Shown here: positions 3,295 through 6,477 of the stretch, piece after piece | How the letters are laid out: the number at the start of each line of letters is the position of its first letter | How positions within the stretch are numbered: the first letter of the stretch is position 1 | Assembly (NCBI GenBank): GCA_026415995.1 | Contig: JAOAGB010000063.1 | Location: forward strand, 1 to 32,864 | Origin: Thermodesulfovibrio sp. | Lineage (GTDB): Bacteria > Nitrospirota > Thermodesulfovibrionia > Thermodesulfovibrionales > Thermodesulfovibrionaceae | Reading direction: 5' to 3' | DNA: 32,864 bases | Program-made: the position numbers and the translations under genes | The notes under the pieces: generated by a model | Databases searched by the model: none | The model's input: only the letters and a program-made list of their open reading frames with translations | Told to the model about the DNA's origin: nothing

Positions 3295-3326
3295 AAATTG
3301 CTATTTGCTTAAATTTATAGCATTTT
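3295..3326. terminator. Weak possible terminator hairpin between convergent genes
   Basis: TGCTAT...ATAGCA inverted repeat flanked by A/T runs next to the cytochrome b stop. Confidence 0.3.
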
Positions 3327-3981
3327 AGTTTTTCTTTATTTCTTCATACCAGAGGGAATGTCTGTGCTTTACATATTCTTCATCTATATAACCTGTTAAC
3401 ATGCTTTTCAAAAGAGGCCAGTTTGACCTGAATAATAAAACTGTTCCCACATGAATAATAAAGGCAAAGATAAAAATGAAACCAGATAAAGTATGAATAA
3501 GAGTATTTATTGATTCAGCTAAAGGTGACAAAACAATCCATTCTAAATTTTTCAAAACCTTTATAATTCCTGTTACTGTTAATAAGATTATGATAAAACC
3601 TATTCCCACATAAGCAATTCTTTGCTCAGGAAGATATTTTTCTGATGGTGGCTCTTTACCCAAGCCAATCATAGCTCCTATGACTTTGATGCTTTTAGAA
3701 ATATCTCCCCTTTTTGGTAAAAGGGCAAAATCCCTTCTCAATCCATGATAAAATATATGAAAAATTACTGCAGATACAAAAACAACAGAGGCAACATAAT
3801 GCACTATAGTGACATTGTAAAAATCTGCTGTCCATCCAAAACCTGGGATCTCAGTAATATAGTATCTTTTATAAAGAGGAAGACATCCAAGTCCTGTAAA
3901 AAGAAGTACTATACCTGAAAAAGCTATGATCCAGTGTTCTATGATTTCAATTAAGCTATGTCTTTTAATTTTATTTTTCAT
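3325..3981 (-). CDS. Membrane di-heme cytochrome b subunit (FdnI/PhsC-like)
   Basis: Four hydrophobic segments with His ligand candidates (EHW, IVHY, FHIFYH, LIHT, IIHV), KYLPEQR and C-terminal SMLTGYIDEEYVKHRHSLWY typical of formate dehydrogenase gamma-like subunits. Confidence 0.85.
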   Translation of the reverse strand: MKNKIKRHSLIEIIEHWIIAFSGIVLLFTGLGCLPLYKRYYITEIPGFGWTADFYNVTIVHYVASVVFVSAVIFHIFYHGLRRDFALLPKRGDISKSIKVIGAMIGLGKEPPSEKYLPEQRIAYVGIGFIIILLTVTGIIKVLKNLEWIVLSPLAESINTLIHTLSGFIFIFAFIIHVGTVLLFRSNWPLLKSMLTGYIDEEYVKHRHSLWYEEIKKN

Positions 3982-4948
3982 CTTCCCTTTCCTTCTTGGA
4001 GCTTTTCTTAGACAATACTGCTCCTATACTTGCTCCAATCATGGATAAAAAGCCAGAAACTAAGACTATCTTGCCAATTGGGTTGAAAGTTGATTCTATC
4101 TTATTTTCTATTTTAACTGGCATCTGAAATCTATCTTTCTTTCCATTTATGACCTTCTCTATTGTTTCGAAGGGAATTTTAGATAGATACGAAGTAGATG
4201 TGCCACCATTTTGTGTATTTCCATAAATATATAATCCTTCTGCTTTTGCTCTACTATAGGCCATGTCAAAAACCTCTTTTCTTCTACCAAACATAAATAC
4301 TGCCTTATCCCCGAGTCTCTCTCTACAAGCAATTACACAGGCAGGTTCCTCACCTTTTTTTATCCTATCTTTACAAAGATCGCACTTATACATAACACCA
4401 CCACCTGCATACTTTGGCAAAATATCTAAATATATGCCTACACCAGCCTGTCTCTGAGGTATATGCCAAGGACAAACGTCCCTACATTTTGCTCCACCAA
4501 AGCATAGTTTGTCATTTATCACAGAATTACCCTCCGGTCCTTTTGTTAATGCACCAAAAGGGCATTCTCTCACACATGGCGGATTATCACAATGCATACA
4601 TCTTCTCGGTATATTAACCTCTTGACCATCAATATTTATCTTCTGAACAAATATCCAATTGTATGGAGTTAAAGTATCAATCTTATCCCTTTTATCTGAC
4701 CAATCTTCATAGCTTTTTCTTGGCCAGTAAGGAGGAATCGGCTTTTTAGGCTCAGGGAATCTATCCCTATTATATTCTCTACAAGCTTTTACACATCTTG
4801 GCATTATTTCGCCTTTACATCCATCACATTTAGTAAGATCAATTATTGTTGCATATTTGCCTTCAATAGCCTCTGCTTGATTGCCCAATAAAAATGAACC
4901 CAAAAGAGTTGAAGAAAAAGCAAGAAATCCTCTTCTTGAAATCTTCAT
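3971..4948 (-). CDS. Tat-exported four-cluster Fe-S protein (HybA/FdnH/NrfC-like) with C-terminal membrane anchor
   Basis: SRRGFL twin-arginine signal with AEA cleavage site; Cys groups CDGC..C..C, CMHCDNPPCVRECP, CFGGAKCRDVCP, CDLC..PACVIAC; hydrophobic C-terminal helix; AGGAGG RBS. Confidence 0.9.
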   Translation of the reverse strand: MKISRRGFLAFSSTLLGSFLLGNQAEAIEGKYATIIDLTKCDGCKGEIMPRCVKACREYNRDRFPEPKKPIPPYWPRKSYEDWSDKRDKIDTLTPYNWIFVQKINIDGQEVNIPRRCMHCDNPPCVRECPFGALTKGPEGNSVINDKLCFGGAKCRDVCPWHIPQRQAGVGIYLDILPKYAGGGVMYKCDLCKDRIKKGEEPACVIACRERLGDKAVFMFGRRKEVFDMAYSRAKAEGLYIYGNTQNGGTSTSYLSKIPFETIEKVINGKKDRFQMPVKIENKIESTFNPIGKIVLVSGFLSMIGASIGAVLSKKSSKKEREDEK

Positions 4949-4961
4949 TATATAACCTCCT

Positions 4962-4976
4962 TCGGCAAACTGCCGA
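4962..4976 (-). promoter_or_regulatory. Candidate bacterial SECIS hairpin
   Basis: UCGGCA-GUU-UGCCGA begins 12 nt after the in-frame UGA at 4991-4989; the loop starts with GU after an 18 nt spacer from the UGA. Confidence 0.5.
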
Positions 4977-4988
4977 TTAGCTTATCCT

Positions 4989-5171
4989 TCAACCGCCTGA
5001 GTTAAAATAAGGATTACAACTTATAACATTACTAGAAAATTGAGAAATTAATTTTTCTGTTTCATTAGTTCCGCAAATAGGACATTTTTCTTTTTCATCC
5101 CTTTTATTCACTGATTTAAATACTTCAAAAGTATTTAAGCATTTTTTACACCTATATTCATATACTGGCAT
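4989..5171 (-). CDS. FmdB-family zinc-ribbon protein (possibly extends to 4977 by Sec readthrough)
   Basis: MPVYEYRCKKC...FE...CPICG...KLIS signature; AGGAGG RBS. Confidence 0.92.
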   Translation of the reverse strand: MPVYEYRCKKCLNTFEVFKSVNKRDEKEKCPICGTNETEKLISQFSSNVISCNPYFNSGG

Positions 5172-5182
5172 ACAAACACCTC

Positions 5183-5446
5183 CTATACCGCAGAAATATA
5201 TGTTTTGATAACCTTCTCTATGTCTTTTTCAAGCTTATCTATAGAGCTTTCATTTTTATTTAAGCAATCTTTAAGATAAAATTTTACAATTAAAAAACCC
5301 GCACCCTTAAGAGCTCCATTTATGGAGGCAAATTGGGTTATTATTTCCTCACAAGCCCTTCCAGATTCAATCATTCGTTGTAATCCCCTTAACTGTCCCT
5401 CTATTCTTTTTAGTCTTTGAATTAATTTCGTTTTATTTTCCACCAC
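5183..5446 (-). CDS. CsoR/RcnR/CstR-family transcriptional repressor
   Basis: RLKRIEGQLRGLQRMIE...C32...Q...AL...C61 pattern; tandem GTG start options. Confidence 0.92.
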   Translation of the reverse strand: MVENKTKLIQRLKRIEGQLRGLQRMIESGRACEEIITQFASINGALKGAGFLIVKFYLKDCLNKNESSIDKLEKDIEKVIKTYISAV

Positions 5447-5449
5447 TTT

Positions 5450-5468
5450 GATACCTTACCCCCTTATC
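5450..5468. promoter_or_regulatory. Putative CsoR-family operator
   Basis: GATACCTTACCCCCTTATC: C5 tract flanked by GATA/TATC inverted repeat, between the promoter and start codon of the repressor gene. Confidence 0.55.
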
Positions 5469-5479
5469 TTATTTTTTAT

Positions 5480-5509
5480 AATATAAAATAAGCTTAATTT
5501 TGATGTCAA
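5480..5509 (-). promoter_or_regulatory. Putative sigma70 promoter of the csoR-like operon
   Basis: TTGACA (5509-5504), 18 nt, TATATT (5485-5480). Confidence 0.6.
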
Positions 5510-5529: not shown

Positions 5530-5558
5530 TTGATTATTAAAAATTTTTATGCTAAAAT
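5530..5558 (+). promoter_or_regulatory. Putative sigma70 promoter of lysR
   Basis: TTGATT (5530-5535), 17 nt, TAAAAT (5553-5558) preceded by TGn. Confidence 0.6.
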
Positions 5559-5568
5559 TAATTTGTTT

Positions 5569-6477
5569 ATGGAAGACCATAAATTAAAAATATTTTGCAC
5601 TGTCGCAGAAACTAAGAGTTTCTCTAAAACTTCTGAAATCATTCATCTCACTCAACCTGCAGTTAGCCTTCAGATTCAAGCCCTGGAAGAACTTTATGAA
5701 ACAAAATTGTTTGATCGTTCATCAGGTACCATAACCCTTACACCTTCTGGCGAAATTCTATATAAATATGCAAAACAAATATTAACATTATATGCGGAAG
5801 CTGCGAAAGAAATAAGCAAAATAACAGGACTTATAAAAGGCTGTGTAAAAATAGGAGCAGGAACAACTGTTGGAAACTATATACTACCTGCAGTAGCAGT
5901 TGACTTTAAAAAAAGGCATCCTAAAATAAGAGTCAGCATTTCAATAGGTAATGCTAAGAAAATATTAGAAATGCTAAATACCAGCATGATAGATTTTGGC
6001 ATAATTTCTGAAATGCCAGGAAAGAGTAAATTCAATGTGGAATCAATAATATCAGATGAGCTATGTGTAATCTGCCCATCCGATCATCCTTTATGTAAAC
6101 AGAAAACCGTATCAATATATGACGTAGTAAAGGAACCTTTTGTTATTAGAGAAGAGGGATCAAGTACAAGAGTAATAATTGAGAAGTTTCTTAATGATAA
6201 TGGCCTTAGTATTTCCGATTTACACATTGCCCTTATTTTAGGCTCAACAGGTTCAATTAAAGAGGCTGTTGAAAGAGGAATGGGACTTTCAATTGTCTCT
6301 AAATGGGCAATAAGAAAAGAAGTATCCTGTGGAAACTTAAAAGTTCTAAGGCTCAAAGAGGGTGAAATAACAAGAGATTTTTATGTGGTATTACCTAAAA
6401 ATTCAATACTTGCTCCAGCTGTTGAAGAGTTCATATCCTATCTAAAAAATTACTCCTACAGTGACCTTCTTTTATAA
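5569..6477 (+). CDS. LysR-family transcriptional regulator (CysL/CmpR-like)
   Basis: HTH SFSKTSEIIHLTQPAVSLQIQALEE...LFDR, REEGSSTR in the effector domain. ATG 5569 preferred because the track's TTG 5530 coincides with the -35 box. Confidence 0.92.
   Translation: MEDHKLKIFCTVAETKSFSKTSEIIHLTQPAVSLQIQALEELYETKLFDRSSGTITLTPSGEILYKYAKQILTLYAEAAKEISKITGLIKGCVKIGAGTTVGNYILPAVAVDFKKRHPKIRVSISIGNAKKILEMLNTSMIDFGIISEMPGKSKFNVESIISDELCVICPSDHPLCKQKTVSIYDVVKEPFVIREEGSSTRVIIEKFLNDNGLSISDLHIALILGSTGSIKEAVERGMGLSIVSKWAIRKEVSCGNLKVLRLKEGEITRDFYVVLPKNSILAPAVEEFISYLKNYSYSDLLL

Follow-up and report, generated by a model that had tools for sequence, protein, structure and literature searches.

A probable selenocysteine in the C-terminal tail of a widespread subfamily of FmdB-type zinc-ribbon proteins

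Does the TGA that closes a small zinc-ribbon gene of Thermodesulfovibrio sp. end translation, or is it read as selenocysteine (Sec)? The gene lies on the minus strand of the window, that is, the whole 32,864-nt stretch of DNA analysed here (Table 1). From its ATG at 5171, 60 codons run up to the TGA, and the closest named homolog, also from Thermodesulfovibrio sp., is annotated as a protein of 60 aa. The original prediction was that a 64-aa FmdB zinc ribbon continues through the UGA over three sense codons to a TAA, and that a hairpin follows whose GU-starting loop lies 18 nt beyond the UGA. These elements are all present on the minus strand, which reads GGC GGT TGA (4991-4989) AGG ATA AGC TAA (4979-4977) TCGGCA GTT TGCCGA (4976-4962) AGGAGG. 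With the TGA taken as U, the C-terminus becomes SCNPYFNSGG-U-RIS, and the 64-aa product scores 61.3 bits against TIGR02605 (cut-off, 31.3; profile scan with C in place of U); the ribbon protein also passes PF09723 (55.2 bits against a cut-off of 34.4). We consider it very likely that the gene encodes an unannotated selenoprotein of a widespread subfamily, with ordinary decoding and a function that we infer from sequence. In an AlphaFold model with Cys for Sec, the ribbon is confident (pLDDT 85-90) and the tail is of low confidence (53-58). A fold search with the ribbon protein gave nothing at an E-value of 0.001 or better, the weak rows being generic zinc ribbons.

Table 1. Features at the zinc-ribbon locus of the window, and (last row) paralogs located near selA in other genomes.
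Feature	Position	Strand	Basis or remarks
Cytochrome b subunit, FdnI-like, after Fe-S gene	3325..3981	minus	profile scan
4Fe-4S dicluster protein, HmcB/HybA-like below cut-offs, with twin-arginine motif	3971..4948	minus	downstream neighbour in 12 of 19 genus loci
Shine-Dalgarno AGGAGG of downstream gene	4956..4961	minus	abuts hairpin; sequence
Bacterial SECIS-like hairpin	4962..4976	minus	perfect 6-bp stem, GUU loop beginning 18 nt past UGA
Predicted true stop, TAA	4977..4979	minus	relatives use TAA, TAG and TGA at second stop
In-frame TGA, predicted Sec codon	4989..4991	minus	same column TGA in 30 of 30 genus and order loci
FmdB-family zinc-ribbon gene, read through UGA	4977..5171	minus	64 aa: CxxC 8/11, CxxC 30/33, tail Cys52, predicted Sec61, RIS, TAA
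CsoR/RcnR-family repressor, CstR-like, first gene of predicted operon	5183..5446	minus	x-C-x-C; C32 and C61; Tyr56 at His/Asn position
Conserved G-tract element ending GGTAT, candidate CsoR-family operator, partly also ribosome-binding site	5451..5467	minus	found at 16 genus loci with repressor
Sigma-70-like promoter upstream of predicted operon	5480..5509	minus	11 of 12 consensus matches; TTGACA recurs in genus loci
Divergent LysR, NF040786 (selenium metabolism-associated)	5530..6477	plus	281 bits (cut-off 250); neighbour in 17 of 19 genus loci
Second FmdB paralogs near selA	G157:C108, G161:C256, G175:C97, G180:C19, G187:C27, G188:C27, G192:C20 (L291), G193:C222, G196:C32, G199:C306		

The hairpin had been likened to that of E. 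coli fdhF; our comparison was made with the published consensus model of the bacterial SECIS instead. The ranges given in PMC13188914 are a loop of 3-9 nt, a stem of 4-16 bp, a G at loop position 1 or 2, a spacing of 16-37 nt and a folding energy of -7.5 kcal/mol or lower. The loop, stem, G position and spacing of the hairpin at 4962-4976 all fall within them, and its energy by itself, -7.2 kcal/mol, is narrowly short of the last. The 47-nt region around it folds at -11.6 kcal/mol (z = -2.57), which 4 of 200 shuffles equalled. Because 67 of 953 long-ORF stops (7%) in the source genome (G000) pass a lenient hairpin test, a single copy is modest evidence. A genome-wide search of G000 with the SECIS pattern was uninformative, since it gave no excess over the reversed control (17 versus 17), and an Rfam search of eight loci (E-values up to 5) gave no match to a SECIS family and two weak, unrelated matches only.

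By the sequence comparisons described here, it is conservation that lifts the UGA and its hairpin far beyond chance. Orthologs exist in 19 of 21 genomes of the genus, G006 and G014 having only weak paralog matches, and all 19 show TGA at the same column, two or three codons, and then TAA or TAG. One of them (L033, in G016) has an extra TAA at codon 6 with the tail and hairpin intact, and may be a pseudogene or an assembly error. The 11 best matches from other families of the order have G/T-TGA followed by four or five codons ending with Cys and then TAA, TAG or TGA; the codons after the TGA vary synonymously among them and the stem covaries. In the genus alignment the stem is paired in 97.4% of cells, against 21-54% for slid controls, the sequences being kin and not independent. 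Double changes were found at four of the six stem pairs, and the covariation score was reached by none of 500 shuffles, so the hairpin conservation with compensatory changes that the original prediction called for was observed. The ortholog in G002 is covered by contigs of four metatranscriptomes, all from one study; in two of them (X1 and X2) a single contig spans the repressor, ribbon and Fe-S genes with the TGA unchanged, although these contigs give no information on strand, level or single transcripts.

All four genes that Sec insertion was expected to require, selA, selB, selD and selC (tRNA-Sec), exceed their cut-offs in the source genome, which is 63% complete. They lie on contigs other than that of the window, and the earlier remark that no sel genes are visible in the window thus holds, to which the adjacent NF040786 LysR gene can be added. 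selB is above its cut-off on C60, with a further N-terminal match on C54, and selD carries one in-frame TGA with a G-loop hairpin at a similar distance behind. selA was detected in 57 of 61 relatives, and in all 55 that are near-complete. G127 (locus L112; 96% complete) keeps the TGA, the hairpin and tRNA-Sec without selA or selB over the cut-off, which represents an assembly gap or a recent loss. G185 also keeps the tail form, and selA was not found in it. As a separate observation, 10 of 45 genomes have a second FmdB paralog no more than about 5 kb from selA (Table 1); L291, the one of these that was read, has a Cys-rich tail and a TAA stop.

No selA match was obtained in 19 of the 59 Nitrospirota genomes examined, and in 16 of these 19 the best FmdB match alone was read. 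The short-tail form is absent from that best match in 15 of the 16, the exception being G127. Among the 15, L108 (G079) is ambiguous: it is a 95-aa FmdB paralog with a TGA, two codons (the first for Cys), a TAG and a GC hairpin at 14 nt, and no Sec machinery was found in G079. The matches read in four selA-positive genomes (L081, L084, L091 and L111) show another tail type, so the tail form is not universal.

Outside the phylum, a GTDB pattern scan that did not fix the stop codon (TRR) yielded 120 loci, of about 1,500 matching stretches estimated overall. In 103 of the 120 the pattern is in frame with an ORF of 55-68 codons, and the codon is TGA in all 103; two of these (L149 and L202) are Cys-rich non-members lacking the hairpin, and three members (L134, L195 and L215) are among the 17 others. 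As 104 of the 120 sampled loci are members, roughly 1,300 family matches can be estimated among the GTDB representatives. Judged by record titles and tree labels, about a dozen phyla are concerned: Desulfobacterota/Thermodesulfobacteriota, Nitrospirota, Myxococcota, Acidobacteriota, Chloroflexota, Planctomycetota, Bacteroidota, Ignavibacteriota, Spirochaetota, Armatimonadota, Fibrobacterota, Marinimicrobia, Zixibacteria and Krumholzibacteria. selA is present in 47 of the 50 source genomes checked out of the 120, none of them titled Nitrospirota; one of these selA matches (G164:C157:2068-3432) has one internal TGA. The misses are two non-members and one member (L166), so that, outside Nitrospirota, 44 of 45 genomes with a member have selA. 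Across the phylum of G157 (251 genomes), a TGA comes after the GF[ST] tail in 28 genomes (three known carriers, G157, G185 and G205, included), a TAA in none, and a TAG or a Cys, Tyr or Trp codon in none. The expectation of an invariant TGA in orthologs is therefore supported at each level, with no TAA or TAG at the Sec codon in 30 of 30 genus and order loci, in 103 of 103 GTDB loci, or in the 251 genomes (28 versus 0 versus 0). A tree on 47 columns gave 17 label changes for the Sec-tail form, one of them forced by well-supported branches, and would fit a single origin of the form as well as several. Database proteins with tails ending F/Y-R/K at the same column may extend the family (P0069, P0071, P0105, P0127, P0133, P0136, P0151, P0178, P0204 and P0224).

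For a closer view of the family, members were required to have 55-77 codons before the TGA and another stop no more than 12 codons beyond it, and 182 remained after removal of 17 duplicate loci, L033 and four Cys-rich ORFs. The TGA is present in these 182 by definition, because membership required it, and the unbiased counts are those from the genus and order, from GTDB and from the 251 genomes. The second stop is TGA in 88, TAA in 57 and TAG in 37, and lies one to six codons on in 177 of the 182. The hairpin test, which was not part of the definition, is passed by 165 of 181 and failed by 16, with loops 15-23 nt past the TGA; the pass rate is about 30% for shuffles, 194 of 613 for other stops of the same loci and 10 of 37 for non-member paralogs. 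In loci L113-L130 (family f19), a short conserved element beginning AAGCC lies 10-20 nt past the SECIS and is possibly a terminator arm. The four ribbon cysteines (C8, C11, C30 and C33) are invariant in the 114 members aligned. Every one of the 182 members has a Cys in its tail: the 47 without Cys in the 13 residues upstream of U all have one after it, against 5 of the other 135. These 47 are not independent, because they belong mostly to one order, Thermodesulfovibrionales (elsewhere, L144, L189, L238 and L250). The Cys-to-U spacing is variable (1-13), in contrast to that of a fixed CxxU site, and the residues after U are few and poorly conserved. In other FmdB paralogs the tail is Cys-rich or long, each of the three stops occurs, and the hairpin is mostly absent.

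According to PMC13188914, nearly all selenoproteins have Cys homologs, and such homologs are a usual, though not universal, supporting criterion. The original prediction had proposed to look for them here. In this it was disappointed: no Cys at the Sec column was found in 150 representatives, 120 database profile matches, a metagenome pattern scan or the 251 genomes of the phylum of G157. Two candidates from the metagenome scan proved on reading to have other tail types.

The order of genes in the genus is a divergent LysR gene, the CsoR-family repressor, the ribbon gene, the 4Fe-4S protein (ATG at 4948 in the window) and cytochrome b. By the consensus of CsoR-family operators, the G-tract element at 5451-5467 is a candidate operator. 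The best PDB matches of the repressor are 7MQ1-3, the CstR of S. pneumoniae; in this group of proteins x-C-x-C marks persulfide sensors and C-H-C marks copper sensors (bioRxiv 10.1101/2021.07.25.453692). Tyr56 of the repressor, a Tyr in all 16 genus copies, aligns to N55 of SpCstR and to the His of Cu-CsoR, and the repressor thus has the x-C-x-C pattern without the metal-binding His, as a CstR does. No rhodanese or persulfide reductase was found among the adjacent genes scanned. In family f19 the upstream genes include YgaP-like (six loci), rhodanese (three), CBS and AcrB-family genes. Counting thioredoxin, rhodanese, TauE, OsmC, NifU/NifX, ArsR, CsoR-like and desulfurase genes, categories of our own choice and with no background control, sulfur/redox-type genes lie no more than two genes away in 12 of 39 distant loci and not in the other 27 (120 of 151 neighbouring ORFs scanned). 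No partner gene conserved across phyla was found. The Fe-S protein and cytochrome b at 3325-4948 have no adjoining catalytic subunit in the ORF list and are possibly a stand-alone, quinone-linked electron conduit. A short way downstream of the operon, at 2766-2919 on the minus strand, are genes for tRNA-His and tRNA-Arg.

The comparisons above leave us confident that the UGA of the ribbon gene is read as Sec and that the protein ends three residues later. SelB bound to the hairpin would decode the UGA, and translation would end at the TAA three codons later; cells without selenium would make the 60-aa protein listed in databases. The CxxC/CxxC ribbon would bind zinc and dock on a partner, and the Gly/Ser-rich tail, with Sec61 paired with Cys52, would cycle between selenolate/thiol and a selenylsulfide or persulfide, accepting or passing reactive sulfur or selenium for partner proteins. 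We assign a probability of about 0.5 to this reading as a whole, that is, to Sec insertion through an ordinary bacterial SECIS together with a Cys52-Sec61 tail that swings as a redox arm and handles reactive sulfur or selenium. Given readthrough, a redox or chalcogen-carrier role of the tail is at least an even bet. For the handling of reactive sulfur, suggested by the CstR-like x-C-x-C repressor ahead of the gene, the chances seem evenly balanced; with the predicted co-transcription behind this repressor in the genus, the gene would be induced by reactive sulfur species. It is tentatively possible that the family is obligately Sec-containing, with no Cys version, that it ranks among the most widespread of the unlisted bacterial selenoprotein families, with roughly a thousand GTDB species across a dozen phyla, and that it represents a general Cys-Sec shuttle for sulfur or selenium, or a selenium gauge, of anaerobes that has been wired to a persulfide-sensing repressor in Thermodesulfovibrio.

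It seems very improbable that the UGA genuinely ends translation and that the hairpin serves as a terminator, as a stability element, or as an operator or promoter in the DNA for the next gene. All database products of tail-form members do end at the TGA, and no stop is more frequent than TGA in the loci fetched (272 of 613); there is a promoter-like match (10 of 12) overlapping the hairpin, and selA went undetected in G127 and G185. However, the TGA is invariant whereas the next stop is free to vary, the loop keeps its distance from the TGA in the members that pass the hairpin test, and the background share of TGA among stops at long frames in G000 is about 31% (276 of 903). The pattern of an intrinsic terminator (a GC-rich hairpin and a run of U) is not present, since AGGAGG comes next, and no terminator-like sites were found on the minus strand; promoter-like matches, including the one on the hairpin, are at chance level (4 versus a mean of 4.3). 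Moreover, the stem contains G-U wobbles, which point to RNA rather than to a DNA palindrome, and its sequence differs between phyla.

If Sec is inserted, it may serve other ends than the transfer of sulfur or selenium. The tail Cys and Sec could be soft-metal or Fe-S ligands of a metal or cluster chaperone or sensor, and this we regard as unlikely. The Cys-rich tails at the same place in other paralogs, among them one of G000 on C68, speak for it, as do neighbouring genes for NifU, NifX-like proteins, Fe-S P-loop ATPases, ArsR, CutA and DUF364 and, in the genus, the 4Fe-4S protein. However, one tail Cys and one Sec, as in most members, are too few for a cluster unless the protein oligomerises, and the adjacent repressor has no metal-binding His. 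It is rather doubtful, too, that the Sec is regulatory, with UGA readthrough as a selenium gauge that would switch the C-terminus for stability or partner binding or, in the genus, bring the ribosome onto the hairpin and so free the ribosome-binding site of the next gene. The missing Cys homolog would be expected if selenium dependence itself were selected, the extension is tiny and variable, the AGGAGG abutting the hairpin is partly paired in the 47-nt fold, and a selenium-associated LysR gene adjoins. Against this stand the tail Cys common to all members, which argues for chemistry, and the retention of the hairpin where the usual close same-strand gene does not follow (L023, L029, L034 and many distant loci).

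If the predicted Sec reading is true, many proteins annotated as 'zinc ribbon domain-containing' or as 'putative FmdB regulatory protein' have been truncated immediately ahead of the likely active residue, and lists of selenoproteomes miss a family of the size estimated above. A terminal Sec with no Cys homolog falls in a blind spot of searches based on Cys/Sec pairs or on truncation, and the family may have been missed so far because only one to six residues follow the UGA. The 64-aa protein would then be a first chemical point of entry to the FmdB ribbons, which have long gone uncharacterised.

FmdB selenoproteins have been predicted before. Two, with CxxU, were reported from GOS reads (TIGR02605/COG2331) in PMC2398784; for the published form, 2 selenoproteins stand against 807 Cys homologs. 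In what is available of PMC13188914, a 2026 list of 119 selenoprotein families, FmdB appears in Table 1 only as UxxU, different Sec positions count as distinct subfamilies, and the tail-Sec form is not seen. FmdB was not found in the main text of PMC13326102 or in its supplement, of which the material available may not extend to the family list of Table S2; PMC12013277 has no match for FmdB or zinc. No tail-Sec FmdB was found in the literature covered, which is largely that outside subscription, and the ribbon protein matches no selenoprotein model of NCBIfam release 20. The 'FmdB' of PMC11227280 is subunit B of formylmethanofuran dehydrogenase, a different protein.

The published FmdB selenoprotein and the tail form share the zinc-ribbon domain, the prediction of Sec and a bacterial SECIS of the ordinary kind. 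An N-terminal ribbon with a low-complexity tail is general to FmdB zinc ribbons (TIGR02605, PF09723). In the published FmdB selenoprotein, however, Sec lies in the CxxC-type motif of the ribbon, whereas the tail form has all four ribbon cysteines and its Sec one to six residues from the end (177 of 182). The consensus bacterial SECIS, as described in the legend to Fig. 2A of PMC13188914, has a 3-nt loop starting with G and then U, a 6-bp stem and an 18-nt spacing, as here. In the window the hairpin lies entirely past the final stop and is thus free of coding constraint, whereas in other members the hairpin and the end of the coding sequence, last codons and stop included, overlap.

Flexible C-terminal Sec tails are present in mammalian thioredoxin reductase, in SELENOK and SELENOS, and in the bacterial KCU-star and SaoC proteins. 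These have Sec near the C-terminus, often after Gly and with a Cys nearby, and can be compared with the ribbon protein in the way they work only: the fold differs, the ribbon protein lacks both a membrane helix and an FAD domain, and no homology is claimed. The persulfide-sensing operons under CstR contain rhodaneses and CoA persulfide reductase (bioRxiv 10.1101/2021.07.25.453692), whereas in Thermodesulfovibrio the repressor is followed by the ribbon gene, a 4Fe-4S protein and cytochrome b.
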